Source: Candidatus Micrarchaeia archaeon (GTDB taxonomy: Archaea; Micrarchaeota; Micrarchaeia; CAILAH01). From it: DNA of 16,057 bases. The stretch's first letter is position 1. Every line of letters starts with the position of its first letter. The notes under the pieces are model-generated. The model was given only the letters and a program-made list of their open reading frames with translations. It made no database searches and had not been told where the DNA came from. Where the stretch lies: the NCBI GenBank assembly GCA_049970015.1, contig JBMFNT010000018.1, positions 1-16,057 on the forward strand. The letters are read 5' to 3'. This document shows, piece by piece, positions 239 through 16,057 of this stretch. The translations under genes and the position numbers were made by a program.

Positions 239-246
239 TTTATATA
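239..246 (+). promoter_or_regulatory. Putative archaeal TATA box (TTTATATA) for the operon
   Basis: TTTATATA ends 30 nt before the ATG at 276, and that ATG has no Shine-Dalgarno, consistent with a leaderless or short-leader archaeal transcript. There is no clear purine-rich BRE on the + strand. Confidence 0.55.
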
Positions 247-275: not shown

Positions 276-1520
276 ATGGCAACAATAGGAGAATTGTATG
301 TCCAGAATGCAGAACTGCTCGGTGTTCCTCTAGCCCTTATGCTCTCGTATATAGTGGTTGGCCTTGCTTACATGGTCTCAAAAATATTCTCCTCTCCACA
401 GATCGAACAGTGGAGCAAGGTTGAGTTGAATGAGGCTTTTATTACAACACTTTACGCCGCATCTATACTTGCAATTGTCGGGGTGTTTGATGTTGCAATG
501 TCAGAGTTCGAATCACTGGGAATAATTGTAAGCCCTACAAATATTACAGATGTTGTACAGACCATGGTTGGTATAGGGATGGACCTGGTAGTAAAGATTG
601 CAGGTATGTATTCATATCTAAGCATAGTATCCTGGCTTTCCTATAGTCCTGGGATCTCAATGGATACTTTTCTGGGGCTTGGTAAGACATCTTTTAGTTA
701 TATGTCTTCTCCACTCTCTTTCTTTGGATATGTGCTTGAGCCGTATGGAATACTCCAGACAGTTGCCATAGGTGGTGTGGCATCAGTCATTGGACAGTAT
801 GTAGTCTACATATTAATAAAAGACCTTTTCTTAGGTTATCTTCTACCATTCTCACTTGTGCTGCGCGCATTCCCAATAACAAGGAAGCTTGGTTCAACAT
901 TGCTTGCAATCGTTGTTGGCGCATACTTCTTTTATCCGCTTAGCATGGGTATAATGATGGCATCCACATGTAACCTTAAGTACAATGACCCCACTACGTT
1001 TGCAGATTTTTTTGCTAAGGGTGCAGGCGCTCTCGGATTTGCTTTAATGGAATTTTTCAAGAAACTGCTAGACATGCTAGCATTCCCTGTATATATATAT
1101 CGCTTGATAGAATTTTTGGCAAATAAGTTGGTAGATGAGATGTGCAATGGCTCTTGCAGCGGACTAAACGCACTATGTTGTGGTACTGCATATTATATTG
1201 CAGTTTCTATTGTTTTCTCAATATGGCCATATGTTCTGTACCTTGATTTGTACTATACTGTGTATAAATTGATCTTTGCAATTGTGTCGTTTATAGCAGC
1301 GTTTGTGGCAACGATTGGAACTCTTATAGCGGATCCAACATATTTTGCTGATATGGTGTCTAATAGTGTGCTTGACCACATTGCAGGGTTTTCAGTGCTT
1401 TATGCATATGCATTTTTTGCCCCCATATTCTCTTTCATGTTTACGCTATTGGGCATACGTACAATGCTGACCCTGTTCGGAGGGGATGAAGTGATAGTGA
1501 ATATGCTGTCTTTCTTATAG
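276..1520 (+). CDS. Polytopic membrane protein, paralog 1 of 6 (CedA/VirB6-like by motif resemblance), 414 aa
   Basis: Long hydrophobic ORF with family motifs LAYMVSKIFSSPQIEQWSKVEL, LPFSLVLRAFPITRKLGSTLLAIVVGAYFFYPL and C-terminal APIF...LFGGD. Confidence 0.9.
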   Translation: MATIGELYVQNAELLGVPLALMLSYIVVGLAYMVSKIFSSPQIEQWSKVELNEAFITTLYAASILAIVGVFDVAMSEFESLGIIVSPTNITDVVQTMVGIGMDLVVKIAGMYSYLSIVSWLSYSPGISMDTFLGLGKTSFSYMSSPLSFFGYVLEPYGILQTVAIGGVASVIGQYVVYILIKDLFLGYLLPFSLVLRAFPITRKLGSTLLAIVVGAYFFYPLSMGIMMASTCNLKYNDPTTFADFFAKGAGALGFALMEFFKKLLDMLAFPVYIYRLIEFLANKLVDEMCNGSCSGLNALCCGTAYYIAVSIVFSIWPYVLYLDLYYTVYKLIFAIVSFIAAFVATIGTLIADPTYFADMVSNSVLDHIAGFSVLYAYAFFAPIFSFMFTLLGIRTMLTLFGGDEVIVNMLSFL

Positions 1521-1522
1521 GT

Positions 1523-2428
1523 GTGAAAATGCCATTCTGTGCAATGGATATCCATGGGTATGTACAATGGTTCCCTATACTTTCTCTGCTATTTGTTATA
1601 ATTTGGCTTGGCATATCCCTGGTCTACATGATTTCACGGCTCGCAAACAAACCGGAAGGCGAGGCGTGGGCAAAGACGGAGTTTTATTCATCTATAGTAT
1701 CATTCCTTTTAGTATTCTTTATGTTTGGGATTTCAGAAGTATTCTGTATGACATCACTTGAACTTGCGGGGGGAAAGGACCCATTCCAGGCATCGAGCGA
1801 GTATGTGACAAAGTTTTCAAACAACCTAATACCATCAGAGGTTGCATTCCTCTGGCAGGTTGCAAAAGATGTCAGAAAATCTGTATTCAAAACGATGTTA
1901 TATCCATCATGTATAGTAGGTGGCTGTGTGGCATGGGATGCCGGCAACACATACATAGTTGACAATATTGAGCTTGTGAACTATTTCTCCATACCTTTTG
2001 CCGCTGGGCTTGTTGCCCAGAAGCTTGCACTTATGTTCATTGAAGAGGCAGTGTTTACAATGATAATACCTGCAGGATTTATCCTAAAACTGTTCCCGTA
2101 CACACGTTCTGCCGGTGCATACCTAATCTCTATGGGGTTTGCATTTTACTTTGTATTTCCTATGTTTTATGTGCTCGGAACTTTGGTTTACACGGAAACA
2201 AAAGGTGCAGTGAGTGAAATTGAAGGTGTTATAAGAGCGGTTGGGCCATCAGAATACTTACACTTTGACAACTCTGAAGAGGCATTCCTAAGCATAACCC
2301 GTTTGGCTATGTATGTAATGTATGCACACTTTATACCCTTGCTCGGTATTATATTTTCAATATCTGCGGCACGTGCCCTGTTTGAGTTGTTCTCAACAGA
2401 TTTTCTTGAGGGGGTGAGACCAGTATGA
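1523..2428 (+). CDS. Polytopic membrane protein, paralog 2 of 6, about 300 aa (true start possibly ATG 1529)
   Basis: Motifs LVYMISRLANKPEGEAWAKTEF, IPAGFILKLFPYTRSAGAYLISMGFAFYFVFPM and IPLLGII...LFSTD. AGGTGTG at 1519-1525 fits as an RBS for ATG 1529 better than for GTG 1523. Confidence 0.88.
   Translation: MKMPFCAMDIHGYVQWFPILSLLFVIIWLGISLVYMISRLANKPEGEAWAKTEFYSSIVSFLLVFFMFGISEVFCMTSLELAGGKDPFQASSEYVTKFSNNLIPSEVAFLWQVAKDVRKSVFKTMLYPSCIVGGCVAWDAGNTYIVDNIELVNYFSIPFAAGLVAQKLALMFIEEAVFTMIIPAGFILKLFPYTRSAGAYLISMGFAFYFVFPMFYVLGTLVYTETKGAVSEIEGVIRAVGPSEYLHFDNSEEAFLSITRLAMYVMYAHFIPLLGIIFSISAARALFELFSTDFLEGVRPV
2408..2417 (+). promoter_or_regulatory. Archaeal-type Shine-Dalgarno (GAGGGGGTGA) for the ORF at 2425
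   Basis: Resembles GGAGGTGA and lies 7 nt before the ATG. Related motifs precede the other internal genes (1519-1525, 3747-3754, 4744-4750, 5893-5899, 6963-6968, 7704-7708). Confidence 0.7.
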
Positions 2429-3759
2429 AAAAGCAACTATTCCTGATTGCACTCATACTTTTAGCATCACTCTCATATTCAGAGTCAGAGAAGATATGTA
2501 ATAACGGGAATACGGTCATGAATATAAGCAACAATGAGCTTTACACCTATGTAATGATTATAGTAATGATTCAGATTGTACTTGCCGGGCTTGCATACAT
2601 GTATTCAGGGATTACAATGTCCAGTGAGTTAAAGGCATGGGGAAGGAATGAAATAATGCAGGGTATATTTACACTCATTGTTGTTGCGACATATTTTGGG
2701 CTGGCTACAACTATAGGTACATACCTTTCAGATATGGTAAGTAATCTGGAAACAACAAATGATCACCTCTCTGTCGCAAAGAATGCATGTTTCAATAATG
2801 AAACATATAGATGGTCAGTTGATAATTGCAATACATACAAAGAACTTAAAACCCCTGAGGACAAGGCATTTTATGCAGCCCGCGCATACATTGGCCTTAC
2901 ATATGAACGGTTGGGGGAGATACTGACTAATGCATTGAGAGGGATGTTTTTGTATGGTGCAGTGGATTCATACGCCATTAGTATAGGTTTTGCTGCAGAG
3001 CAGGCAGATTCTTTTGGGATTTACTTTTCATCAGGCTTTCCTATGCATGCAGTGATGATAAACACGCTCAAGAACCTCACAGACCTGATCGTAAAACTTC
3101 TGATGACAATCAAGTTCCAGGAAGCTATATTAATGATTATTAATGAAGGAGGGCTTGGGCAACGCATATTCATACTGGGTATCCTTTTTAGATCAGTATG
3201 GTTCCTTAGAAAGGCAGGCGGCCTTATGATTGCCCTGGGTATAGGCCTTATGTTTGTACTTCCATTTCTGTACATGCTTGGCTGGTATACCATAGATATC
3301 AACCCTTTCAAGGGCATATTTGACAGTACGAGTATTGTCAAACATGAAATAGATACATTTGATACTGCATGGTATAAAACACTTGGTGCTATACAAGGAG
3401 CCTCGGCTGCAACGCTTCTCACACTTTATGCAATAGGTGTGGCAAACCTGTTCAGTGTTGGTGGAAAAATCCAGCTAGCATTTCTCCCGGCTGATGCGAT
3501 ATATTCAATCATGCTCGGAGGAGTTATGATAGAAGCAGGAAACTACTCCTCAGGTAAGGGACTGATTGCTCCAAACCTCTATACTGACTTTTCAAAACCA
3601 GAAAAAGGTATAGGATACTTCGATTTAATCTCGCGCTACCTTCTCATTGCGCTTGCGCTTCCCATTATCAATCTATACTTCCTACTCTCCTTTGTACGTT
3701 CGCTCTCACCGTTGCTTGGCGGTGATCATACAATACCAGGCATAGCGAGGCTGATATGA
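2425..3759 (+). CDS. Polytopic membrane protein with N-terminal signal peptide, paralog 3 of 6, 444 aa
   Basis: Signal-like MKKQLFLIALILLASLSYS. Motifs LAYMYSGITMSSELKAWGRNEIMQ, LGILFRSVWFLRKAGGLMIALGIGLMFVLPF and LPIINL...LLGGD. ATGA overlap with the previous stop, and RBS GAGGGGGTGA at 2408-2417. Confidence 0.9.
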   Translation: MKKQLFLIALILLASLSYSESEKICNNGNTVMNISNNELYTYVMIIVMIQIVLAGLAYMYSGITMSSELKAWGRNEIMQGIFTLIVVATYFGLATTIGTYLSDMVSNLETTNDHLSVAKNACFNNETYRWSVDNCNTYKELKTPEDKAFYAARAYIGLTYERLGEILTNALRGMFLYGAVDSYAISIGFAAEQADSFGIYFSSGFPMHAVMINTLKNLTDLIVKLLMTIKFQEAILMIINEGGLGQRIFILGILFRSVWFLRKAGGLMIALGIGLMFVLPFLYMLGWYTIDINPFKGIFDSTSIVKHEIDTFDTAWYKTLGAIQGASAATLLTLYAIGVANLFSVGGKIQLAFLPADAIYSIMLGGVMIEAGNYSSGKGLIAPNLYTDFSKPEKGIGYFDLISRYLLIALALPIINLYFLLSFVRSLSPLLGGDHTIPGIARLI

Positions 3760-4754
3760 TGGCAGTCATACTAACATGGGCAGAGTTTGCATTGTTCGGT
3801 GCCCTTGTGGCCTACCTGTTCGTGGTCTTGCGGTATATGGTGGCCTCAATGTTTAACAACAGTGAGATGAAAAGCCTAAGTATAATTGAAATCCAATCCA
3901 TCATATTTACACTCATAATATTTGCAACGTTCAGTGCGCTTGACTACTCTTCGCAGATAAACGCTGCAAAGAAAACGATAGAATCATATTATAGTGACAG
4001 CATGGACATTTACAAAGGCATAACTGCCTCAGTAACATTATTGTCAATACTCGCATCTTTTGGTATACAACCTAATATTGGTTCTTTTATTTCGAAATCC
4101 ATATTCCCAGAACAGGCCGTAGACTCTCTGTATGTAGGTATAACACCGTTCTCAGTATTTTCACCGCTCATAACTGCCATCTCATTTTTCCAGTCATTTC
4201 TAGGAATCTCTTTCATAGGCATGCAGATGCATATCAAGCTTCTTGAGATGATCTCAACAACTGGAAAATCAGTGCTTTTCCCACTGGGCATATTCCTTCG
4301 CGCGTTCAAGATAACACGGGATGGTGGCAATGCACTCATTGCACTTTTCTTAGCGCTTTACGTGATGTACCCGCTCACAATAGATTTTATAGATTATGTT
4401 ATCAAGGAAAAATACAGTGAATGTAAAAATGTAAATATTTTACAGTTCGGGAACTTGATGTTTAATGAGGTTATGGCAGCAAAGTTCTTCGATATGCCGA
4501 CAGATATAATTTCACTTGTTCCAGGTTCTAAAGAGTCAATACGGCTCACGGATTACATAAAAGGTCTCAAATCAAACATGTGTAAGTATAAAAATAATAT
4601 ACCAAACTTGATAGGTAATTTCATAGTAATCATAGGTTTCAAGGGGATGTTTGCACCTATTTTTGCACTCATCATAGCTTTGGGGTTTGCCCGCGTGTTT
4701 GCAGGTATCCTGGGCACTGAGGTGGACTTCTCATCCCTTGTACGGGTGATATGA
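3756..4754 (+). CDS. Polytopic membrane protein, paralog 4 of 6, 332 aa
   Basis: Motifs LRYMVASMFNNSEMKSLSIIEIQS, FPLGIFLRAFKITRDGGNALIALFLALYVMYPL and APIFALII...ILGTE. The start overlaps the previous stop (ATGATG). Confidence 0.9.
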   Translation: MMAVILTWAEFALFGALVAYLFVVLRYMVASMFNNSEMKSLSIIEIQSIIFTLIIFATFSALDYSSQINAAKKTIESYYSDSMDIYKGITASVTLLSILASFGIQPNIGSFISKSIFPEQAVDSLYVGITPFSVFSPLITAISFFQSFLGISFIGMQMHIKLLEMISTTGKSVLFPLGIFLRAFKITRDGGNALIALFLALYVMYPLTIDFIDYVIKEKYSECKNVNILQFGNLMFNEVMAAKFFDMPTDIISLVPGSKESIRLTDYIKGLKSNMCKYKNNIPNLIGNFIVIIGFKGMFAPIFALIIALGFARVFAGILGTEVDFSSLVRVI

Positions 4755-4755
4755 T

Positions 4756-5904
4756 ATGCGCAAACATATGCTCCTTGCATTGGTTCTGTTTGCACACGTT
4801 TCGTTTGCAGCAGAAATGAGTGCATGCAACCTTACATTCAACCAGGACTATTATACAATATCTGCAATAGGTCTGGTAATCTCAATACTTCTTCTTGCAC
4901 TTAGGTATATGCTCGGAATGTTGTTTGCTAGCCCTGATGTTGAAGCATCAGTTAAGGTTGAGGTATGGCAGATCGTTGCCACACTTGGTATCTTGATATT
5001 CATTCCAGTGATCCCGCTTGTACTCTGCTCTCTTGACTTCACACCACAGGGAATTGTTGATGGTAATTCAATAGCGGGCGCAAAATCAGACCTTATGATG
5101 AGGGTAAAATCATCTGCAGATGTATATTTAGAGATAGCAGACCTAATGCATGAAGCGGCTGCAATAGGTACAATGCAGTTTGGGTTTTATATTAACAAGA
5201 TTGGTATATTTTTCTCACCTTTTGGAGGATACGCAACCATTGCGCAATTATCTGCACCTCTCGCACAAAGTGCTATAACAACATACTTCGCATCAGTTGG
5301 GTATTACACAATATATGTTATAACGCAATCAAAATCATTCCTCCTTCTCATCCCAATAGGCATTTCCCTAAGATGTTTCCCTATAACAAGAAAGATTGGT
5401 GGCACACTGCTTGCAGTAGGTATAGGTCTTGTCTACATATTCCCTCTCATAGTATCTATCAGCTCCGCCATACTCCCTCCACCTTCTCCTGAAAGCTTCA
5501 ACATAGATGTGCCAAGCTCTGAAGTATACTTCATACCTATGACAACAACTTTCTATGCTATAACTGTTGCTGGAATCATGGTATCAGCAGCAACGCTAGG
5601 GGCGCTACTTGCACCCCTGTCAAGTATAACTGGGTTGTTGATAGAGGGGGCCACATTGTCTTCCATTGCAACTGCTGTGCAATTCTCACAGCTCCTTGGT
5701 TCGGGCGCTAATTTATTCACAGACATTTTGACTGGTGGCGTACTCTCAAGTATAAGTGATGCGTACACTGCACTCGCCTCAATCGTAATACCAGTATTCT
5801 TTATGCCTGCACTTGAGCTGATAGTAGTATCATCAGTGATCCGAAGCCTCTCATCAGTGCTTGGCTCCGAGATAGATATAAGCGGAGTGTTTAGGGTGGT
5901 ATGA
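4756..5904 (+). CDS. Polytopic membrane protein with N-terminal signal peptide, paralog 5 of 6, 382 aa
   Basis: Signal-like MRKHMLLALVLFAHVSFA. Motifs LRYMLGMLFASPDVEASVKVEVWQ, IPIGISLRCFPITRKIGGTLLAVGIGLVYIFPL and MPALELI...VLGSE. RBS GGGTGAT at 4744-4750. Confidence 0.9.
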   Translation: MRKHMLLALVLFAHVSFAAEMSACNLTFNQDYYTISAIGLVISILLLALRYMLGMLFASPDVEASVKVEVWQIVATLGILIFIPVIPLVLCSLDFTPQGIVDGNSIAGAKSDLMMRVKSSADVYLEIADLMHEAAAIGTMQFGFYINKIGIFFSPFGGYATIAQLSAPLAQSAITTYFASVGYYTIYVITQSKSFLLLIPIGISLRCFPITRKIGGTLLAVGIGLVYIFPLIVSISSAILPPPSPESFNIDVPSSEVYFIPMTTTFYAITVAGIMVSAATLGALLAPLSSITGLLIEGATLSSIATAVQFSQLLGSGANLFTDILTGGVLSSISDAYTALASIVIPVFFMPALELIVVSSVIRSLSSVLGSEIDISGVFRVV

Positions 5905-6974
5905 TGGGTATAACTTGGCACACTTCAGCAACCGATATGCTTGCAAACATGGGTAATGAATGGTGGACAATATATCTGCTTATTGCAATTATAGTTGTGA
6001 TTTTCAATGCACTCGTTTACATGATATCACGCCTATTCATACTTCCGCAGATTGAGAGGTATGCAAAGGGTGAGATGTTACAGGCATTTGCAATGGTGGC
6101 AATAGGTGCAATCCTTCTTGCATTCCAGGTGAGCGGTGATTTTGCAATGGTGCCAGGAGGCCGCTCAATAACACAACTAATTGATGAAAAAACTGCAGAG
6201 CAGATTCTTGGTGTGAAAGGATATGCTGCAAACCCTTATGAGGTGGATTATGTATACCTTGTAGCAATCCTCAAAAAGCTTGAGACGGAGTTTATGAATG
6301 CAAGGGCACAGTCAGCTTATGAGATTCCCACAACCATGATGCTCGGTCTAAACATCCTTAGCAATTATGTACCAGTACCACTTACCACCATGTTTGAGTT
6401 TATGTGGAGCAAGTTGTTTGATGCCATACTTCTTGCCGAAGATACAATGTGGCTCTCGATTGCGGCATATTTCCAGCTCAATCTCCTGCAGTGGATTGAG
6501 GCAAGCATGGCTGCAGTATACCTTCCCCTTGGTCTAATATTTCGTGCAATACCAATAACCCGTGGCCTTGGCGCAGCAATGATGGGTATTGCAATAACAT
6601 TGTATTTTGTATATCCGTTCGTGCTTGCAATAATGTTCCTGAGTGGCCCGCCCCTTGAAGGTATAACTATTTCTGTTGAGGAGAAGCCAGCACAGGCAGA
6701 GGGTGGTGGGTCAAAGCCAAAGATATGCCCGGCCGACCCAACAGCTGCGATTGAACTATTGGACAATCCCCAGTTCAAGCCAGACTCGCCACAGAGCAAG
6801 GCAGCATCAGAAAGGATGTCAAGTGCGCTTGGCGCATTCTCCCTAATACAGCTGTATGCATACTTCTATCCTCTTGTTGCAATGTTTGTCTCGCTCATTA
6901 CAGCCAATGCAATAACCAGCATACTCGGTGGGGATCTTTCAGGCATAAGCAGGAGTATATTCAGGGTGTTATGA
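5901..6974 (+). CDS. Polytopic membrane protein, paralog 6 of 6, 357 aa
   Basis: Motifs LVYMISRLFILPQIERYAKGEMLQ, LPLGLIFRAIPITRGLGAAMMGIAITLYFVYPF and YPLVAMF...ILGGD. The start overlaps the previous stop (ATGATG). Confidence 0.9.
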   Translation: MMGITWHTSATDMLANMGNEWWTIYLLIAIIVVIFNALVYMISRLFILPQIERYAKGEMLQAFAMVAIGAILLAFQVSGDFAMVPGGRSITQLIDEKTAEQILGVKGYAANPYEVDYVYLVAILKKLETEFMNARAQSAYEIPTTMMLGLNILSNYVPVPLTTMFEFMWSKLFDAILLAEDTMWLSIAAYFQLNLLQWIEASMAAVYLPLGLIFRAIPITRGLGAAMMGIAITLYFVYPFVLAIMFLSGPPLEGITISVEEKPAQAEGGGSKPKICPADPTAAIELLDNPQFKPDSPQSKAASERMSSALGAFSLIQLYAYFYPLVAMFVSLITANAITSILGGDLSGISRSIFRVL

Positions 6975-7702
6975 TGGAAAAACAGGATATGAAGTTTAAA
7001 ATTGTTGTAATAGCTTTCCTGTTTGTGCTTACATTAGCATTTCTGCTCTTGCTGAGCAACAGGCAGAAAGAGAACGTGGGTATTGAAGGCATGTTTGATA
7101 ATATTAGCAATCGTACACAATCCAATTTCACAGAGCCTTTTAGCCATGATCTTTCTAGTCAGTTAGGTACGAACATTACAATGCCAGGTAATGTAAGTGT
7201 AGACATGCCTACTAAAGCCAATATTACATGCACACCTTACCGGCTTGAAAATATATTATTGGTTGAGAGGGGATACACAGTCAAGATGGAGGATAAGGTT
7301 ATGGATATAAGTGTATATAAAGCAGTCCCTTCATCAAACGGATACATAGTGTCCAGCAAGAGTATGATGAGTTCTGAAGATGTTAATGTAGATGTTGAAA
7401 TGAAATGGTTATTTGATAAGGATTTGAGATGCACTGGTATGGAGATTACAGCACCATTTGTTGGCACCAATTCGTATAATGGCTGCTATTCATATCCCCT
7501 TGGCATCGTTTGCAAGGAATTGATAAGTGATACGCTATACAATGGTACCAAGGAATATAGTGTGATGGGCAGGACATACACAGTTGATGTGTATTCATAT
7601 GAAGGGTTTGAGTTGGGTGTTGGAAGGGAAATCCCAATATTGTTCTATGGATATAGCAAAGATAAAAATATTTCAATCGAACTATATTACATAAAACCAT
7701 AA
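6971..7702 (+). CDS. Membrane-anchored extracellular hypothetical glycoprotein, 243 aa
   Basis: Single N-terminal TM (IVVIAFLFVLTLAFLLLL), then a stalk with clustered sequons (NIS, NRT, NFT, NIT, NVS, NIT), then a beta-rich domain with four Cys. Translationally coupled to paralog 6. Confidence 0.85.
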   Translation: MMEKQDMKFKIVVIAFLFVLTLAFLLLLSNRQKENVGIEGMFDNISNRTQSNFTEPFSHDLSSQLGTNITMPGNVSVDMPTKANITCTPYRLENILLVERGYTVKMEDKVMDISVYKAVPSSNGYIVSSKSMMSSEDVNVDVEMKWLFDKDLRCTGMEITAPFVGTNSYNGCYSYPLGIVCKELISDTLYNGTKEYSVMGRTYTVDVYSYEGFELGVGREIPILFYGYSKDKNISIELYYIKP

Positions 7703-7714
7703 AGAGGAATAGAA

Positions 7715-7789
7715 ATGGGGGTTCACACGTTTAAAAATCACATGTTTCTTGTGCTTATAGTCTTCACATCTATATTCATTCTTGGTTGT
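7715..7789 (+). other. Signal peptide ending in a lipobox-like ILG-C (Cys25)
   Basis: Basic residue, then hydrophobic core MFLVLIVFTSIFIL, then GC (TGT at 7787-7789). This is typical of archaeal lipoprotein-like signals. Confidence 0.7.
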
Positions 7790-10700
7790 GTTTCAAAAGA
7801 GTTGAAGTACAGCTCGCGCGAGGAACTGCCAACAGAGATAACAATAACAAAACTTCCAGAGCCGTCCAAGCTTGAAACCCCGTTTGAGGTTGAATGCAAG
7901 GATGCTTCATGTGGTGTGGTTGCAAAACAGTATGTGCAAAAGAATAGGAAATGGGAATGTTTTCCAAGGATGAAGGTTGCAAACAATGACCCGATGGGAT
8001 CAACATATGTGGAGATGGAAGGTGGCTACTGTGAACCACTTCCGGCTGCAGACATCCTATGCCTGGACTATGAGTCCAACAACCCAGCAAACCTTGAGGG
8101 TTATTATGAAACAGTACAACCATGCGGGAACTTCATTGGGGTTGGGGTTGGGGTTTCTCTGCCATCTGCACAAAGCCAGGCCTGTGGATCCATAGGAAAT
8201 GGTTATAATTTGTCTGCACTTGCAAACGAGTTTAGAGGGGGTACATACAAAATAGTTGAAGATTGTGAGAATGTGTTTGGGTGCTCATTCACCTGCAAAA
8301 ATGCAGTTTCCTGCGAAGGTAGGTATAAGGAATGTCCTGCAGAGATGCCCATACTCTACCCGTACAACGCAATGCATTTTGCATACAATCCCATAGTAAG
8401 CCAAGGTGAATTACCAAGTGCAACCATAAGAAACCTGCTCAAAGATTACACGTTGATAGGAACGGGTAGTAGTAGTTCAACTAAAGAGAAGTTTGCTCAA
8501 ACTAACGGGCAAAATGGAGGGAGTGAAGGATTTGGTGGTTTCCCAGAGTGCAAGGATGTATGCAGCAATATAAGGAATGTACAGGATAATGAGAGATGCA
8601 AGAAGTGTAGCGATGAGCAGATGGATACGCGCGCAAAAAATGCTGCAGATTCTTCAGTTAACATACAAATAAAACAGAAAGGGTATTCATTTTCTGAACT
8701 GAGCCCAAAAACAGATGATCCATCAAAGAGTGTATGTACAGGATTACACCCATGTGTTGAGATAGACCGTGCAAGGAATGAGACGGGTATAGGATATTTT
8801 GTGTGTCAATCAAGATGTAAGCCGGAGGCAATGCAATACTCTGCATACAGGTGCACGCGTCCCGGTTCAACAGTTGAGTATTATTACACTTACTGTGAAG
8901 AGACTACGGATGAGACAAGCCAGGAAGGTAGCCTTATTTATATAAGCAAGTTTGATGCCTACAAAGCAAAGGCGCTCTTCCAGAATAGAGAGGTTGAGAT
9001 ACCTACGCTCATGCTTGGACAGGGTCCAACATTCGAGGATTACGAGCTTGCAAAGGAATACTGTGCCCCGGCCGACCCTGCTGATGTATTCATAGATGTT
9101 GGTTATTACCCATTCCAGCCAAAGCGTATCACAGTTTTTGAGAATGACACAATATGCTTTACGAACAAGGGTACATCGGCACACATACTGTATACTTCCA
9201 CAAAAAAGAGATACAACATTACGCTTGATGTTGATCAAACAGAGTGTGTGCAGGCAGATGGTAGTTCCAAGCTGCCTATGTATGTTGGTATAAATACCAT
9301 ATATATAGATGATAACCTACCCACAGCAAACCTTACAGTTGAGGTTTTGGAAAGGGCTGGCAGCAAGGCTTACCTTACACATACAGTACTAGGAACATTT
9401 ATTGCGGGCAGAGGCCTTGGTGAGAGTAAGTTTATGTATAAGGGTAAGGTTGAGATGCCTTTGGAGTATACATCGGCACAGGTTTATGATAAAGTCAATG
9501 CAACATTCCTGTGTGCGGGCATGCCTTCAACCCCAGGTGGAAGTGTTTCATTCTCACAATGTGCCAGGAAAATATCTGATGATATAGATTGGGGTACTGT
9601 GCAACAGCAGGATGAGAAAAACTTGGACTCGTTTATTTCCCAATACTCATTTTTTGTGGCCCCATACCGTGAAGGTGAGTTTTACATAATACCAGATGAG
9701 GTTAGCATAGTTTCCTATGGTAACGGTAATGGATTTTCGCTCGCAAAGGATGAGAACAATCATCTAATGCTGGTTGCCACTAACGATACCAGGCTAGAGG
9801 TAGAGAGTATGTTGTGGCCAAACGCAATACGCATGACAAAAAACAGCCCGCTATGCATAGAGAATACCCTTCCGGAATCGTTTGGTGCACGAAACATTGT
9901 GCTTGAAAGAAAGACTTCACCCAAAGGAGATTACACGTTTGTTGATGCTAAAAAAACATTGCGCGGTGCAAGCTGCTGTTTTATAATAAATGAGTCTGGC
10001 GTGTACAGGTTGCGGGATGAGAATGAGTATGACCCCAACTATATGGGGTATGTTGTTGTATATCCCGCAGGTGCAGACCAGCAGGTTGATGTTTATGATC
10101 CAAACTTTAACCCGCAATCCGTGCTTGCAAAGGAGGATGATTACCTGTGTTTCAGGAATGAGCACGCTGAGGATAGAAACATTTCACAGGTGGGTGGCAC
10201 AATGAAGTTTAATGTGCCTGCACAGAAGACCACATGTACTTATAAGATTACAGAAAAAGAGGGCAGTTATGATTTTGTTGATGATCTAACCGGAGCCTGG
10301 TTGCATGTTGCAGTTGCAACAAATGATACGTTATACATTACAGTTTATCAAGGTGGTGCATTATACTCAATAGATGACCAGGTTGCATCAAGTGGGAATA
10401 TATGCTTTAATTCAGAATCGACAAATGTAACTAATGTCCATTATAAGCTTATTACGCAGTCCAAGGATATAAAACCGGAAAACATACTCACTGGTGCAAC
10501 GGTGTCAATACCCCCCATGAGTTCTCGATGCATAAAAGCGCCAGCTGAAGGACTTTATGCATTTACAAGCGAGCAAATGAACAGTTCTCTTGTGCTTGCA
10601 GCTGTTGGGCCGGAGAGCAAGGCGTACATAGTGAATGGGAGACAGATCCCATACATTGTGAAACAGAAAACCCAGCTTACTCTTCCTACCGAGGGGATTA

Positions 10701-13700
10701 AGTATAGTGAGCTGTTCATTGGTGAGCATCTCGTAAATATAACAAACCTTGATGATACGGAATATGACCTTTATTCAGTGTTCAATATATACAACTGTAC
10801 TGGGATACCTCAATCTTTCAGGCCGACCACATCAAAGGTTGCATTCAGCAATCCGACAGAAATAAATGTGAAAATTACCTGGGAAGGTGGAAGCGTAAAT
10901 GTGTCTGCAAAAAATATCACATTCTATGACTTTGGCAATAAAGAAGTTTATACATTCACGCTTAAGGATCCGCAACTCCTGAACTGCATATGCAATACCT
11001 CCTACAAGGGTGAAGAGTATTACAAGCATTGCAGTATAAATGCAAGCAGTAAGACGGAAGTTTATTGGACCGATAAGCTCAAAGTTGCTAACACAAGCCA
11101 GAGTAATGGCACAACGCTATCTCCACAGAAAACAATAGTTTACGATGCAAAGGCTGGCTCGTACACAGTAGACTTGTTTAATGGAACTTCACGAGTTGGT
11201 ACTATCAACATAGATGTTAGCACAACTGCTACAAAGGATGTGCTGAAAAAAATAGGCTCTGCTATAGATGAACCTATAGATTTTGGTGTGCAGGTAACCT
11301 CTGGAAAGCTTTCTGATGATGAGATAATGCACATGAAAAAGATGCTTGCATATGACAAGTCGCTGCCCATGGTTTTGTTCAGTACTGTTGGGGATGTGAG
11401 GGTTGAGGTGGTTGACCCTTACTCTAATGAAAACTATTCGTTCCCTTCCGGTACAAGGGTGCATGTTTACACCTCTGACAATGTTGCAAGAGAGGAGGTT
11501 ACCCCTCCAAGCAGTTTCCCATCTGATTTGGTTACTCACAACTACACTGAAAATGGTATACATAAGAAGGAATGGAATTTCACGCTTTCTGAGAATGACA
11601 AGTATGTCTTTGAGATAAATAAAGGTAATGGGAAGAAAAAGGTTGAGGTCTCAAGCGTTCCACAGGTTGTGGAAGTCAACTTTACATATGTGCGCTCAAA
11701 AACAATCCCATCGAAATCGGGTAATGACTATGTGCTCCGTGTAAGAAATCTTGCATATGAGCCAAGGCCTATACTTTTCAGGCCAAATGAGAGTGTTATA
11801 GAAGGGTTGTGCCAAAAAGTAGTGCTTAATAAAACATATACTTTGAATTCAGTCCGGTCATTTCTTGAAGGTAGGATATATCACAATAGGAGTAGTATTG
11901 ATAATATTGAAGATCATGACAAGTTGTATGAGTTTGAGAAGTTTAGCCAGGGAGATGTAACTGAGTTATATCTTTTAGATAATATGGGGTATCAGATGAG
12001 TGGTCAGAAAATCGATTACCCCCCAGATAATGATTTAATGTTGTGCTATGATTCAGTGAATAGGGTCCAAAACTCATACGCTGATAAGGTTGGCGGGTAT
12101 GTTGATGAAAAGGGTTGCTTGATAAAGGGAAGTGCCGCGGGGTATGACCTAAGCCAACAAATAGGTGTTTACAGAATACTTGATAATAATTCTAATATTC
12201 GAGCTAATATACAAGTTGTTGTAGGAGAAAATGGAAATGCCCAAACTGATGCAGCAGTGGCACACATATGGCCCACATTAAATTCAAGTTATAAGCCAGA
12301 TACCTCTGGGGCATTGTGTTATGGTGATAAGTATTTCATGCCGAGTGCTTTTGAGATAAAAGGACAACAAGAACCGGTTACAGTTAGATGGTGGAATGAT
12401 AAGCAGAAGAACAATTGGAAAGGGCTTCCAAGGTTCCTTGTTCTTGCTGCAGAAGGTTCTATGTTTATTGGTATTGAAAAAAATGATGATTGCACATGTG
12501 CCCCCGGGAAATGTGGTGATTGTGAAAATGGCTTTACTGTGCTTCCATATGAAATTAAATGGGTTTCTGATGGTCAGATAGATTGTTCAGAGTATAGTAA
12601 TAAATGCAATGAAATTCAGGGCATGTGTAAAAACAATGCTGGATCTAGTTTTGGGTTCGCCAATAAAAAGTGTAATAATCATGATGATAATGGCAATTGC
12701 ATAGAATGGAAGTATTATAACAGGTTTAAGGTGAATTGTGATTCTGATGGAGAACCTAAAGTATATTTTTATTCATCCTCTTCTATCGATGCAAAAAAAG
12801 AGCTCAGATCACCAGAGTTTAGGTATTACATGCCGTACAAATCATGTGATAAAGGTCAATTCTATAATTTCTCTATTTATAATGGTTCTGGTTCTTCTGC
12901 CTCACCACCACTATACAAATATACTTTGTGGCCTGTAAATGGCATGCTCGCAAAAAATAAGCCAACAATAACATTAGAGAGTGGTGACTTACTTGCACCT
13001 ACTCGAATAAGATTCTGGAGGGAGGATCCGTCTGGGCAGAGCCCTGGTGTGTATGAACCTATGGGCTTATGGGATGGCAAATTCGCATTAGACTGTTATG
13101 TTGATTACTTCCAAAGTGAATCAGGAATAGCGTTCCATCCTCATGAGGAGATTGGTGATGTTGGTGGATGTGATGATTGCAATAATGAGGGATGTGTTGT
13201 AAATAATTCGGATGAGTGGGATTCCTACATATCTCCACCAGATAATAACTATGACTTTATACAAATATTAGATAGTGAGGATTGTGTGGTATGTAGTGGC
13301 GATGAAACGTGCGATCCACAGGAAGATGAATGTAAGTGCGGGGAAGAAAACTGCAAGCCCCAGACAGCAGTGGTTTATATACCAACTGCATCAGGCTATG
13401 GGGGTGTGACAAATACGGGTAGCATAAGCAGTAATTGCAAGGGTAATTCAATGTATGTTCCAACGGATGAGGATGAGAAGAATTTGTACTATCAAGAGGA
13501 ATGGAACTATGGCCTGCTTGATATATGGAAGCCAACATCTAATTGGCAAATAGTCCAATACTTTGGAGACGAAGACTTGCCGGCAGTTAACTTTATGGAC
13601 TGCGAAAATACAATTGATGTAAAGGAATTGAGTGGGACAGCATCATCCGCTACTAATATAGCTCCAAATGCAAAAGAATCACTTTGTGCAAAAACAAGAG

Positions 13701-16057
13701 AAAGTTTCACAAACCCTGTGATATTCATGCATAATGAGATTTCAAAACTGGGTATATACTTGAACCCACAACCCGGTGAAAAACCATCTGTTAAGGATGT
13801 TGCATATGTATTAGGAAGCCAATTTAAGATAACAAAAGGTGTAGTGGATAAAAAATGGTTGTGCTACGGATCAAGCACATATGATGGTGAAGAGACAATA
13901 CTTGCACCACAAGGAATGCGATTCTTCTATCCACAGGGCATAACAACATATGCATTGTATGAATCTCCTGTATACAATTTGCAATTAGATGGTAGCACAA
14001 GCATAACACACCTATCTCCTTTCTCAAAACAGCTCAGCCAGAATAGGATAACTTCTCTTAACATGAAAGTACCAACCCTGAACACTGGCATACGCAATAT
14101 GGGCACAGAGATTAAGGAAGAAGACTATGCTGAGGTTGTGCTCTATAACATGACAATAGAAGGGACTGATGAGGTAAATATCTTAGATGGTGGAGAGTTC
14201 ATACTTAGGAATAAAGGAGATACATCAGTGACCTGGTACTATGGCAGGCTTGACTGCGGCTCATCCGGCACGATTGAGGATGCAATAAACTACATACAAA
14301 CATCATCTCAAAATTGTAGTAATAACGGTTGTAAGAATGTGCTGGAACCTAAATATTCGTTTGCTCCATCAGATATGGCAGAAAGGCTCAAAGAGTATGC
14401 TAATAACAAGAGTGATAAGTATGATCTGAGATATATTACAATAAAACCAAATAGCATGCAATCATTTTCACTTGCAAACAAGCTTTTTGAATGGGGTACA
14501 CAGAACAAAAACTTAGATAAAATAGAGTACTTGTTCTATCACCCGGAGTCTGGCAAGCGCATAAAGGTTACAATCTCGCGTGTGGTACAAGATGTACCCC
14601 TTAAGATAAGCTCATTTAACCCGAATGAAGTCTTTGCGCAGGAGGGCTCACGTGTATGTTTCCTGAACAAGGATAATAAAGAAAGAATAGTGAAAAAGAC
14701 AGTAGATGGGACCAGTGAGGATATTAAGATAGATTCTGGGGCAGTTGCATGCGAGGATGTTTCCAAGTCTAAGTTTACGGATGATAAGTTGAACTCTGAA
14801 TTGAAAATAATCCCAGTTTCTTTTGGTTCAGAGCAATCCTTTACATTGCTTGGCAATATCACAGAACAAGTTACAAGAGTAGGCTCGGCATATGAAAATC
14901 CTTTGTATGAATCACTGGTACTGAACCCGGATGCCCCGGCCACACCTGCCATAATATCAACTGAAATGCTTGATATAAGTGTAGTAAATAATAGTGTAAA
15001 AGATATTGCAGGAAAAATAGCACAACAGAGTAATGTTATAAGCAATGTATGCAACCGCAAGATAACAAGGAATGTATGTTCTAATGATGCTATTGCTTCT
15101 GAAGAGATATTCATTGGAGATAGTGAATATCTGCTTGGAACGGTTGAAGTAGATGGAAAAAAGACCGATATAACTGTGAATGCCACAAAATGCGTTAAAA
15201 TGCTTCCAATCCTGATAAGGCTCAATTCTGATAAGAATATATCCAGTGAGGATATAAATAAAATTAAATCATTGGTTGATGAAGCTGTTAAACAGGGTGC
15301 AAAGATTGATGCACTGGTATTTGTACTGCTTGTTGATGACACTGGTAGGAATTATCGTGGCAAATGCTCCCTACAAAACTATTTCAAAGGGCTCGAAAAC
15401 ATATCAAGACAAGTACTGTGGGAGGATTATTCAAAGAAGAATGAATACTACATGAACCACAAGATATATTCGTTTGTTCTTTTAGGTATTAATTTCAAGG
15501 ATGTGACAAGGGATGAATCATGCTGGTCATATGAAGAACTGAGAGATCAAACGAGTAGATTGCTTTCTGAAGAGGTTCCAACCATGATAGGTAGTGGTAT
15601 AATAGGCCTTGGCCAGTACTGTTTGGTAGATAAGTCATGTTATCCGATTTCTACTGGGATCAAGAATGGAGATTACGGTCTAATGTATTCACCTGATAAG
15701 GATTATTTCATACCATGGAGCGGGTGGCAGTATACGCTTAGAGATAGGTATCTTAGCGAACTTATCAAAAAATCGTATGGCATCGGCGGTCTTGGTGCAT
15801 TGGGTATAGGCACAAGCGGAGGTATAAGTGGTATGGGTATATTCGGTGGTACTGGTGGAATTACCAGTGGCATGGGCGGTTCTAACATACTGGGTGGTAC
15901 TGGTGGAATTACCAGTGGCATGGGCGGTTCTAATATACTGGGTGGTACTGGTGGAATCACCAGTGGCATGGGCGGTTCTAACATACTGGGTGGTACTGGT
16001 GGAATCACCAGTGGTATGGGCGGTTCTAACATACTAGGTGGTATAAGCGGTACAAGT
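7715..16057 (+). CDS. Giant multi-domain cell-surface (lipo)glycoprotein, at least 2781 aa, 3' end truncated by the window
   Basis: Manual translation of frame +2 from ATG 7715 (GAGGA at 7704-7708 upstream) finds no stop to 16057. The supplied track lists no frame +2 ORF in this span, as expected if no stop occurs. The N-terminus is MGVHTFKNHMFLVLIVFTSIFILGC, and the protein has many Cys and N-x-S/T sequons. Confidence 0.93.
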   Translation, partial: MGVHTFKNHMFLVLIVFTSIFILGCVSKELKYSSREELPTEITITKLPEPSKLETPFEVECKDASCGVVAKQYVQKNRKWECFPRMKVANNDPMGSTYVEMEGGYCEPLPAADILCLDYESNNPANLEGYYETVQPCGNFIGVGVGVSLPSAQSQACGSIGNGYNLSALANEFRGGTYKIVEDCENVFGCSFTCKNAVSCEGRYKECPAEMPILYPYNAMHFAYNPIVSQGELPSATIRNLLKDYTLIGTGSSSSTKEKFAQTNGQNGGSEGFGGFPECKDVCSNIRNVQDNERCKKCSDEQMDTRAKNAADSSVNIQIKQKGYSFSELSPKTDDPSKSVCTGLHPCVEIDRARNETGIGYFVCQSRCKPEAMQYSAYRCTRPGSTVEYYYTYCEETTDETSQEGSLIYISKFDAYKAKALFQNREVEIPTLMLGQGPTFEDYELAKEYCAPADPADVFIDVGYYPFQPKRITVFENDTICFTNKGTSAHILYTSTKKRYNITLDVDQTECVQADGSSKLPMYVGINTIYIDDNLPTANLTVEVLERAGSKAYLTHTVLGTFIAGRGLGESKFMYKGKVEMPLEYTSAQVYDKVNATFLCAGMPSTPGGSVSFSQCARKISDDIDWGTVQQQDEKNLDSFISQYSFFVAPYREGEFYIIPDEVSIVSYGNGNGFSLAKDENNHLMLVATNDTRLEVESMLWPNAIRMTKNSPLCIENTLPESFGARNIVLERKTSPKGDYTFVDAKKTLRGASCCFIINESGVYRLRDENEYDPNYMGYVVVYPAGADQQVDVYDPNFNPQSVLAKEDDYLCFRNEHAEDRNISQVGGTMKFNVPAQKTTCTYKITEKEGSYDFVDDLTGAWLHVAVATNDTLYITVYQGGALYSIDDQVASSGNICFNSESTNVTNVHYKLITQSKDIKPENILTGATVSIPPMSSRCIKAPAEGLYAFTSEQMNSSLVLAAVGPESKAYIVNGRQIPYIVKQKTQLTLPTEGIKYSELFIGEHLVNITNLDDTEYDLYSVFNIYNCTGIPQSFRPTTSKVAFSNPTEINVKITWEGGSVNVSAKNITFYDFGNKEVYTFTLKDPQLLNCICNTSYKGEEYYKHCSINASSKTEVYWTDKLKVANTSQSNGTTLSPQKTIVYDAKAGSYTVDLFNGTSRVGTINIDVSTTATKDVLKKIGSAIDEPIDFGVQVTSGKLSDDEIMHMKKMLAYDKSLPMVLFSTVGDVRVEVVDPYSNENYSFPSGTRVHVYTSDNVAREEVTPPSSFPSDLVTHNYTENGIHKKEWNFTLSENDKYVFEINKGNGKKKVEVSSVPQVVEVNFTYVRSKTIPSKSGNDYVLRVRNLAYEPRPILFRPNESVIEGLCQKVVLNKTYTLNSVRSFLEGRIYHNRSSIDNIEDHDKLYEFEKFSQGDVTELYLLDNMGYQMSGQKIDYPPDNDLMLCYDSVNRVQNSYADKVGGYVDEKGCLIKGSAAGYDLSQQIGVYRILDNNSNIRANIQVVVGENGNAQTDAAVAHIWPTLNSSYKPDTSGALCYGDKYFMPSAFEIKGQQEPVTVRWWNDKQKNNWKGLPRFLVLAAEGSMFIGIEKNDDCTCAPGKCGDCENGFTVLPYEIKWVSDGQIDCSEYSNKCNEIQGMCKNNAGSSFGFANKKCNNHDDNGNCIEWKYYNRFKVNCDSDGEPKVYFYSSSSIDAKKELRSPEFRYYMPYKSCDKGQFYNFSIYNGSGSSASPPLYKYTLWPVNGMLAKNKPTITLESGDLLAPTRIRFWREDPSGQSPGVYEPMGLWDGKFALDCYVDYFQSESGIAFHPHEEIGDVGGCDDCNNEGCVVNNSDEWDSYISPPDNNYDFIQILDSEDCVVCSGDETCDPQEDECKCGEENCKPQTAVVYIPTASGYGGVTNTGSISSNCKGNSMYVPTDEDEKNLYYQEEWNYGLLDIWKPTSNWQIVQYFGDEDLPAVNFMDCENTIDVKELSGTASSATNIAPNAKESLCAKTRESFTNPVIFMHNEISKLGIYLNPQPGEKPSVKDVAYVLGSQFKITKGVVDKKWLCYGSSTYDGEETILAPQGMRFFYPQGITTYALYESPVYNLQLDGSTSITHLSPFSKQLSQNRITSLNMKVPTLNTGIRNMGTEIKEEDYAEVVLYNMTIEGTDEVNILDGGEFILRNKGDTSVTWYYGRLDCGSSGTIEDAINYIQTSSQNCSNNGCKNVLEPKYSFAPSDMAERLKEYANNKSDKYDLRYITIKPNSMQSFSLANKLFEWGTQNKNLDKIEYLFYHPESGKRIKVTISRVVQDVPLKISSFNPNEVFAQEGSRVCFLNKDNKERIVKKTVDGTSEDIKIDSGAVACEDVSKSKFTDDKLNSELKIIPVSFGSEQSFTLLGNITEQVTRVGSAYENPLYESLVLNPDAPATPAIISTEMLDISVVNNSVKDIAGKIAQQSNVISNVCNRKITRNVCSNDAIASEEIFIGDSEYLLGTVEVDGKKTDITVNATKCVKMLPILIRLNSDKNISSEDINKIKSLVDEAVKQGAKIDALVFVLLVDDTGRNYRGKCSLQNYFKGLENISRQVLWEDYSKKNEYYMNHKIYSFVLLGINFKDVTRDESCWSYEELRDQTSRLLSEEVPTMIGSGIIGLGQYCLVDKSCYPISTGIKNGDYGLMYSPDKDYFIPWSGWQYTLRDRYLSELIKKSYGIGGLGALGIGTSGGISGMGIFGGTGGITSGMGGSNILGGTGGITSGMGGSNILGGTGGITSGMGGSNILGGTGGITSGMGGSNILGGISGTS
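15845..16043 (+). repeat. 48-bp coding tandem repeat x4 encoding GGTGGITSGMGGSNIL
   Basis: Units start at 15845, 15893, 15941 and 15989, with a partial unit at 16037. All differences are synonymous in frame +2 (att/atc, ggc/ggt, aac/aat, ctg/cta). Confidence 0.97.

Follow-up and report, generated by a model that had tools for sequence, protein, structure and literature searches.

We examined a window of 16,057 nucleotides that makes up the whole of one contig (JBMFNT010000018.1; C18 below) in the genome assembly of a Candidatus Micrarchaeia archaeon (GCA_049970015.1; 783 kb in 72 contigs, 90% complete). Positions 276–16057 are filled by eight tightly packed open reading frames (ORFs; g1 to g8) on the plus strand, the last of which is open at its 3′ end. 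We consider it likely, with a probability of roughly 0.7, that the first six encode proteins of the VirB6/CedA/TedA class and that these belong to a machine fixed in the chromosome, resembling Ced and Ted and equipped with an ATPase, pilins and a surface module. Ced of the Sulfolobales (CedA, CedE, CedA1, CedA2, CedB, and CedD) and Ted of the Thermoproteales (TedA, TedB, and TedC) both import DNA, according to the accessible text of two reports (PMC9905601, PMC11868833). The evidence established below comprises the paralogy of g1–g6, their six fixed positions, a fold resemblance to VirB6, the linkage of the genes in relatives and the joint distribution of the parts. The features of the window are as follows.

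1–231, no strand: 81-bp tandem repeat (2.9 copies, 97% matches) that opens the contig, directly upstream of the TATA-like box
239–246, plus strand: TTTATATA, an archaeal TATA-box-like element read from the sequence, 30 nt 5′ of the g1 ATG; putative promoter
276–1520, plus strand: g1, position-1 paralog of the VirB6/CedA-like family, 414 aa; in the tree it joins the position-1 protein of another family's array
1523–2428, plus strand: g2, position-2 paralog, 301 aa; a branch with support 86 separates all 12 position-2 proteins from the rest
2425–3759, plus strand: g3, position-3 paralog, 444 aa, with a signal-peptide-like N-terminus; a pilin profile matches its first ~90 residues
3756–4754, plus strand: g4, position-4 paralog, 332 aa; the protein chosen for modelling with AlphaFold2 (AF2)
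4756–5904, plus strand: g5, position-5 paralog, 382 aa, with a signal-peptide-like N-terminus; position-5 clade support 95
5901–6974, plus strand: g6, position-6 paralog, 357 aa, placed by sequence comparison and tree
6971–7702, plus strand: g7, 243 aa, with an N-terminal anchor, a sequon-rich linker and a LolA-like domain (AF2 model, Foldseek, VIA-wide search)
7715–16057, plus strand: g8, at least 2781 aa, a giant acidic cysteine-rich surface protein with a lipobox-like ILGC; 3′ end cut by the contig end
15845–16043: 48-bp tandem repeat (4.1 copies) that codes for a Gly-rich 16-residue repeat close to the end of g8; the contig breaks off here

The junctions from g1 to g8 measure +2, −4, −4, +1, −4, −4, and +12 nt, and ribosome-binding motifs of the GGTG/GAGG type stand ahead of all seven internal starts (g2–g8). 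We infer from this spacing that g1–g8 form one operon, read as a single transcript with a short leader before its first gene. An earlier prediction made from this DNA (the original prediction) had described eight co-directional genes with gaps or overlaps of at most 12 nt behind a TATA-like element, and products that are all membrane or surface targeted; all of this was found as described, with several hydrophobic segments in each of g1–g6 and one N-terminal segment in each of g7 and g8. The 81-bp repeat has no other copy in the genome and no Rfam match, and no tRNA was found in it. Both contig ends are tandem repeats and g8 is consequently cut; the break falls inside the Gly-rich 16-residue repeat, leaving about 160 C-terminal residues unassembled.

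Six paralogs in fixed positions and their resemblance to VirB6

The six products are true paralogs, as had been proposed. All 15 pairs match mutually in phmmer searches of a six-sequence database, at E values from 4.7e-17 (g1 and g5, the best pair) to 0.0052, with identities to g1 of 21–24%, and three motifs are common to them: an N-terminal helix pair with Y-M, a central L-R-x-F-P-I-T-R-x-x-G turn and a C-terminal L-G-G-D tail. A full HMMER search with a 12-member profile retrieved 3,059 clusters (50% identity; E ≤ 0.001), and a word-indexed protein search with the same profile returned 3 matches. This large paralog family lies outside all of the Pfam and NCBIfam models that were searched. 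Neither collection gave anything above noise for any of the eight products of the window, no Pfam family was matched consistently by 80 members of the paralog family, and a profile of the six paralogs had 0 matches among sequences of the PDB.

The genome contains a second array of six paralogs, on contig C7 (783–16146; locus L021), which has no giant gene. It is flanked by a gene for a class I aminoacyl-tRNA synthetase with a leucyl-tRNA synthetase (LeuRS) editing domain, and by two FtsZ genes and a gene for a DUF2070 membrane protein. These housekeeping neighbors recur in other families (L046, L049, L057, and L063), LeuRS in four of them and FtsZ in three, which points to old chromosomal synteny of the C7-type array. 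One family has, in place of FtsZ, the gene of a PilB/VirB11-type (T2SSE) ATPase directly after the array (L049:15020–16333, plus strand, 5.7e-36; L059:2–994, minus strand, 1.1e-33).

Arrays are common in the class, as 33 of 40 relatives carry 8–24 copies of the paralog each, grouped in sets of about six. We built a tree from 12 arrays in 10 genomes; it comprises 69 paralogs, after omission of three position-1 proteins truncated where their loci end. In it the proteins group by their position in the array, and not by genome or by array. The position labels require 7 changes on this tree, where the minimum is 5 and the mean for shuffled labels is 45.0, and none of the 200 shuffles was as low. 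For positions 2, 3, 5, and 6, a single branch sets the proteins of each position apart from the rest. By this tree the six positions are ancient and fixed, and the grouping dates the six-fold set to before both the duplication of the array and the divergence of the families; it also argues that the six paralogs are not interchangeable.

The AF2 model of g4, based on an 80-sequence alignment, consists of very long helices (predicted local distance difference test [pLDDT] 82.8; predicted TM-score [pTM] 0.74). When 315 Foldseek candidates were re-aligned in a second look with VIA, TrwI/VirB6 of R388 supplied the only chains with Z ≥ 8. The best of them, 8rtd_L, aligned collinearly over model residues 6–318 (Z 8.7; 223/268 residues; root-mean-square deviation [rmsd] 6.2 Å), followed by 8rt9_F (Z 8.3) and 7o3v_F (Z 8.0), and the next-ranked row had Z 6.8. 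For the ESM Atlas, which holds its own model of g4, the first cluster outside those labelled Microcaldota was a bacterial cluster of PF04610 TrbL (TM 0.48/0.47 over 242 residues), all rows below it having TM ≤ 0.34. In the feature search of the same atlas, g4 led to a Microcaldota-labelled (NCBI label) cluster, 23% of whose members carry Pfam CedA1 (score 0.90). The three TrwI chains and the TrbL cluster support the assignment to the VirB6/CedA class that was part of the original prediction. No ordinary transporter family was matched, VirB6 being the best structural match. An analogy with Mce, where six MCE paralogs stand in tandem, was tried and rejected, as g1–g6 contain no MCE or other Pfam domain; the MCE ring is moreover beta-rich, unlike the helical, VirB6-like g4 model.

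The topology of the paralogs, read from hydrophobic segments and model helices, fits that of a polytopic VirB6 protein, with about five transmembrane (TM) helices and a large outer loop, and the signal peptides of g3 and g5 would place the N-terminus outside. In Agrobacterium, VirB6 shares this topology: five TM helices and a large outer loop lie between an outer N-terminus and an inner C-terminus. There are also signs of a relation to pilins at the N-terminus: a pilin profile (A11) matches that of g3 (window 2425–2691, E 6.4e-4), a hidden Markov model (HMM) of the paralogs matches a pilin at E 1.9e-4, and PF18895 reaches g2 at E 0.7. This possible, weak relation echoes one reported, in the part of the paper available to us, by Beltran et al. 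(PMC9905601), who describe homology between the CedA N-terminus and the pilin CedA1, and the same for VirB6 and VirB2. We have filed g1–g6 as VirB6/CedA-like by predicted fold and by context and have kept them out of PF04610, because no sequence method ties them to TrbL.

An ATPase operon, pilin-like genes, and the distribution of the three parts

Array loci of other families continue, after the six paralogs, with genes for two small 2-TM proteins and for an ATPase with AAA_10, DUF87, and P-loop_TraG domains (Pfam). The ortholog of this ATPase in the present genome lies on contig C1 (27293–28882; phmmer E 2.3e-223), in a conserved operon (C1:23533–30440) that encodes two 2-TM proteins, the ATPase, a Zn-ribbon protein, a coiled-coil protein and a protein of 872 aa. 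Its Walker A and B motifs are intact, and its top NCBIfam matches are CedB (2.8e-24), CedD (1.3e-19), VirB4-like CD1110 (1.1e-18), and TraC (1.2e-14), with HerA lower. As judged by these matches, the enzyme is of the same class as CedB and CedD and not of the same family. Profiles of the 2-TM partner (A9) and of the ~870-aa partner (A10) found nothing meaningful among PDB sequences, and nothing in Pfam or NCBIfam. The CedB/VirB4-like ATPase gene of one relative (L056:485–3628, minus strand) is interrupted by an intein, recognized by Intein_splicing (1.7e-20), which has a LAGLIDADG endonuclease domain of its own (LAGLIDADG_3, 8.7e-24).

Small genes upstream of the arrays of one family match TrbC/VirB2 and T4SS_pilin, slightly under the cut-offs, and the present genome has two homologs of them, at C1:30437–30775, directly upstream of the ATPase operon, and at C8:13503–13877. 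Their architecture is that of a signal peptide and two helices. The C8 copy matches PF18895 (3.5e-5; 24.2 bits, cut-off 26.6) and PF04956 (3.7e-5; 24.3 bits, cut-off 27.9) over nearly the whole profiles, and the C1 copy scores 2.8e-3. The pilin profile reached TrwL among PDB sequences only at E 0.2, among noise. The original prediction had noted that the window lacks an ATPase and a pilin, so that the system might be completed elsewhere or be a non-canonical derivative; the CedB/VirB4-like ATPase operon and the two candidate VirB2-like pilins on C1 and C8 would bear out the first of these. On C8 (12303–13877; locus L162) the second pilin-like gene is followed by one for a protein of 389 aa that contains 31 cysteines and matches nothing in Pfam, which echoes the cysteine-rich proteins encoded downstream of the giant gene (see below).

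Arrays, ATPase, and pilin are each present in the identical 33 of the 40 relatives, and none of them was found in the same remaining seven (G009, G014, G019, G024, G029, G034, and G039; 89–97% complete). In 10 genomes from 4 families all three parts lie in a single co-directional cluster, in the order pilin, six paralogs, two TM proteins, ATPase, Zn-ribbon protein, coiled-coil protein, and large protein. These 10 are made up of six of 17 ATPase-centred loci, three array-centred loci, and one genome (G028) judged by coordinates, and the pilin was placed upstream of the array in five of them, those for which pilin coordinates were compared. In families with only 8–9 matches to the paralog family per genome, the single pilin-array-ATPase cluster is the main array, and for this reason we suggest that it may be the ancestral form. 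The best 80 public ATPase loci, a sample biased toward close kin of this genome, have an intact ATPase operon; apart from a few whose labels differ or are missing, they belong to Micrarchaeota or Micrarchaeia. Of 88 loci, 15 have a pilin-like ORF no more than 300 nt from the ATPase operon.

Genes resembling VirB2, VirB4, and VirB6 are typical of conjugative elements and the contig ends in repeats, as would suit a cluster left behind by an integrated conjugative plasmid or some other mobile element. We regard such an origin as very improbable, because the second array keeps its housekeeping neighbors across families, GC is uniform (0.38–0.45, like the rest of the genome), and orthology holds position by position through the arrays of the tree, as expected of old vertical descent. 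In addition, the ATPase is 55–88% identical across the class, there is no tRNA, and no integrase or relaxase turned up in Pfam scans of the window proteins.

Several results weigh against a Ced/Ted-like machine built on VirB6-class proteins. Foldseek of g4 against the PDB gave nothing at E ≤ 0.001, with TrwI/VirB6 at rank 6 (E 1.1, TM 0.14), an independent VIA-wide search of g4 lists no VirB6 chain (best Z 7.9, from short hairpins), and the Z of 8.7 is below about 13, in the range where the tool warns that helical bundles match by arrangement alone. Sequence comparison does not connect the paralogs with VirB6/TrbL or CedA: neither Pfam nor NCBIfam has anything above noise for the six, and PF04610 has no match in g1–g6 (E ≤ 1), in 80 family members (E ≤ 0.01) or in the six-frame translated genome (E ≤ 1). 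The comparison of paralog and pilin by hhalign yields E 0.0049 with a probability of only 7%, and all of the Pfam scores of the pilins are below the curated cut-offs. The ATPase, for its part, is far under the equivalog cut-offs (85.7 vs. 700 bits for CedB, NF041017; 70.3 vs. 600 bits for CedD, NF053655), and the VirB4 N-domain PF03135 has no match in the genome. The array is not beside the ATPase in this genome, nor in 78 of the best 80 ATPase loci (adjacent in 2/80). Finally, the 40 relatives are kin, and their shared distribution, which rests on 11 families with the system and 4 where it was not found, does not amount to a statistical test.

The missing HMM and profile matches to VirB6/TrbL/CedA, the Z of 8.7 in the range of that warning and the absence of VirB6 from the VIA-wide search also speak for another reading, in which g1–g6 are channel or transporter subunits of a new family that has no relation to VirB6, the fold being a generic bundle of long helices and the ATPase link reflecting some other ATP-driven process of the envelope. 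We think this improbable. In two independent models compared with two libraries, no known fold came closer than VirB6/TrbL, with a likeness that extends over nearly the whole length, the operon partners are the two other universal components of archaeal T4SS (type IV secretion system) derivatives, and the N-terminus resembles a pilin, as the available text reports for CedA and CedA1 (PMC9905601).

The proposed surface module encoded by g7 and g8

The g7 protein has one N-terminal hydrophobic segment and eight N-x-S/T sequons, most of which are in a disordered linker (residues ~31–84) between this anchor and a half-barrel domain of 155 residues (89–243). Four cysteines are conserved in the domain, which is likely to contain two disulfides. 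The AF2 model (pLDDT 78.7 overall; domain blocks 79–97, mostly above 90) matched EPDR1 (3.2e-4), RseB (8.2e-4), MucB, VioE, LprG, and LolA3 by Foldseek. The VIA-wide search gave Z 11.3 (2yzy), 10.6, 10.4, and 10.4 (VioE, RseB), with LolA at 8.0–9.0, LolB at 8.1, and LppX at 7.9, and the ESM Atlas returned DUF3108/RseB at TM ~0.5. The domain is thus predicted to have the open half-barrel fold of LolA/RseB/LprG/EPDR1 and to be lipid-carrier-like. Two search methods and the atlas agree on the fold that g7 has in common with LolA/LolB, LppX/LprG, RseB/MucB, and EPDR1, and like LolB and LprG it is itself membrane-tethered. Unlike the LolA-type proteins, it is archaeal, has an N-terminal helix anchor, a sequon-rich linker of ~55 residues and two likely disulfides, and lacks sequence similarity to them (4–13% identity in the alignments). 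In the original prediction g7 was an anchored glycoprotein. The anchor stands, in the form of the N-terminal segment, while "glycoprotein" reflects the eight sequons and nothing else, and the label misses the LolA-like fold.

The g7 family is single-copy and present in 15 of the 40 relatives. Thirteen strong matches (12 relatives and this genome) all lie directly after an array with a giant gene, and three relatives have weak matches elsewhere. A small protein with a predicted LolA/RseB/LprG-like fold, whose strong matches lie alongside the giant gene, is what is new for the window array.

The giant product of g8 is acidic, with 80 cysteines and 41 sequons in the at least 2781 residues present, and its sole hydrophobic segment is N-terminal and ends in ILGC. 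The lipobox-like cysteine is conserved in its orthologs, which are 2807–3009 aa long and without a C-terminal anchor. These features accord with the giant surface protein that had been proposed, here cysteine-rich, with a lipobox and with its 3′ end cut by the contig. Pfam searches with the whole protein and with 13 overlapping segments of 400 aa gave no domain, and self-BLAST at E < 1e-3 showed no repeats within it. As the L048 ortholog scores above the Pfam cut-offs for Cupredoxin_1 and Copper-bind, beta-sandwich modules are likely in g8. In the accessible part of its description, the published Micrarchaeota S-layer protein has a mass of 101 kDa, a PF05123 domain and almost no sulfur-containing residues (bioRxiv 10.1101/2021.04.28.441871), and g8 is unlike it in its 80 cysteines and its lack of a Pfam domain. 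PF05123 (S_layer_N), searched to see whether g8 might be the S-layer protein, had no match in this 90%-complete genome.

The link between array and giant gene is conserved in relatives, in agreement with the original prediction. The order array, g7-like gene, giant lipobox gene was found in all eight genomes of the same family, and in other families the array-giant link is present at three of the 14 array loci examined (L048, L050, and L051), with a g7-like gene in between at L048 and L050 and not at L051. Wherever a same-family locus extends past the giant gene (4 of 8), two genes for very cysteine-rich, N-anchored proteins follow, and in these relatives the two proteins carry a dockerin-like D-x-N-x-D-G motif. 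Homologs of both are encoded in the present genome on contig C24 (~7593–11579, minus strand; tblastn E 1.5e-81 and 8.1e-93), leading us to suspect that C24 probably continues C18.

The setting of g7 and g8 also suits a machine of envelope biogenesis, in which the VirB6-like channel and g7 would serve to export the giant lipoprotein and its cysteine-rich partners, to give them their lipid anchors or to place them in the envelope of the same cell, and would play no part in exchange between cells. The fold of g7 is that of lipoprotein carriers (LolA, LolB, LppX, LprG), its gene directly precedes that of the lipobox protein g8 with a gap of 12 nt, strong matches to its family occur only beside arrays with giant genes, and no S_layer_N gene was found in this 90%-complete genome, leaving it with no assigned envelope protein. 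Even so, we judge this explanation unlikely, if somewhat less so than the other alternatives. The core partners are a CedB/VirB4-type ATPase and VirB2-type pilins, there are arrays with no giant gene (the C7 array and the ATPase-linked arrays), and g8, with its signal peptide and lipobox, looks like an ordinary substrate of Sec; the S-layer protein published for Micrarchaeota is, as far as its accessible description goes, of a different kind (bioRxiv 10.1101/2021.04.28.441871).

The proposed machine beside known systems

In the reading that we prefer, most Micrarchaeia would carry a machine that derives from type IV secretion, resembles Ced and Ted and is fixed in the chromosome. Each paralog would cross the membrane with five helices, starting from an N-terminus on the outer side; its two outer domains would vary, and an R-x-F-P-x-T-R turn in the cytoplasm would be conserved. 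The six different subunits would form one putative hetero-oligomeric channel or pilus base, and a single CedB/VirB4-like ATPase would act on this putative assembly and energize it. The window array would be, of the two arrays in the genome, the version that travels with the surface module, which would consist of g7 as a membrane-tethered LolA-like carrier of lipid or lipoprotein, the giant lipid-anchored g8, and the two cysteine-rich anchored proteins encoded on C24. Making contact between the machine and another cell, or the envelope, would most likely be the task of this module, and the locus is probably part of an apparatus by which these tiny, host-dependent archaea touch other cells and exchange material.

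It is also conceivable, if rather unlikely, that the window array is a version of the T4SS-derived machine specialized for acquiring lipids. The giant adhesin would then grip the host membrane, the VirB6-like hetero-hexamer and g7 would pass host lipids or lipid-anchored proteins inward, and the second array, near FtsZ, would handle the traffic of DNA or protein with the same ATPase and pilin. DPANN archaea of this kind are generally held to be unable to make their own membrane lipids.

The likeness to Ced and Ted, taken from the accessible portions of their descriptions, is that of a domesticated T4SS derivative on an archaeal chromosome, with a polytopic VirB6-like protein, a VirB2-like pilin, for which Micrarchaeota have candidates, and an ATPase of the VirB4/HerA class, and without an outer-membrane complex, a relaxase or a recognizable VirB8. 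The same portions describe a VirB6-like protein with a pilin-like N-terminus in Ced, and two VirB6-like paralogs, CedA and the five-helix CedE, already in the Ced system of Saccharolobus. The Micrarchaeota system differs from both in its six fixed, non-interchangeable VirB6-like paralogs per array and 2–4 arrays per genome, in showing no HMM-level likeness above cut-off (as with the CedB score of its ATPase), and in its additional conserved partners (the two 2-TM proteins, the Zn-ribbon protein, the coiled-coil protein and the ~870-aa protein). It also differs in that one of its arrays is tied to a LolA-like protein and a giant lipoprotein. Its hosts belong to a DPANN lineage, and neither DPANN nor Micrarchaeota is mentioned in the accessible part of PMC9905601.

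TrwI/VirB6 of R388 (7o3v, 8rt9, and 8rtd) is the best structural match of the g4 model, but at an rmsd of 6.2 Å and with no sequence match. R388 has a single VirB6 gene, whereas the Micrarchaeota array has six distinct genes in fixed positions. VirB6 of R388 forms a homo-pentamer under VirB5. The rvh T4SS of Rickettsiales resembles the Micrarchaeota array in having tandem, divergent VirB6-like genes in the reduced genome of a host-dependent organism; it differs in being a bacterial, diderm, canonical VirB/D4 system with four to five much larger, "extended" VirB6 proteins.

Among DPANN archaea, the giant surface proteins of the SPEARE type in Nanohaloarchaeota contain a VirB4/TraG-like ATPase domain and are encoded beside a VirB4 gene (PMC10266531, accessible text). 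They are thus, like g8, giant DPANN surface proteins that are tied genetically to T4SS-like parts, and the same text proposes that they serve host contact. SPEARE proteins are described there as having the ATPase domain fused, a length of 8,880–9,409 aa, and Ig-like and WD40-like repeats, whereas the giant Micrarchaeota protein has about 2,800–3,000 aa and a cysteine-rich sequence with a lipobox, is without an ATPase domain, and is linked to VirB6-like genes and a LolA-like protein.

Our search of the literature, which covered one library of papers, found no published description of an array/ATPase/pilin system in Micrarchaeota. Cryo-tomography of a cultured Micrarchaeon has revealed intercellular tubes, and the accessible text of that study names no Micrarchaeota genes (PMC11329633). 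For the question of how DPANN archaea attach to their hosts and take up DNA, lipids, and metabolites, the locus offers concrete candidates, which can be tested in Micrarchaeota that are in culture. A relative of the conjugation and Ced machines that is inherited vertically throughout the phylum, and in which the channel subunit has been multiplied into six fixed paralogs, would widen the range of T4SS-derived systems in Archaea beyond the Crenarchaeota, and an obligate hetero-oligomeric VirB6 core, if true, would be a rare case.

Two further neighbors of arrays were seen in relatives. At L052 (11939–19746, plus strand) the array lies beside genes for a protein of 1867 aa and for a lipobox protein of 735 aa, with a domain of lytic transglycosylases (SLT; E 2.2e-5), which could be a candidate wall-cutting partner of the machine. 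At L053 (12776–13339, plus strand) the array is followed by the gene of a small phospholipase D-like protein (PLDc_2, E 4.7e-30), another lipid-related neighbor.

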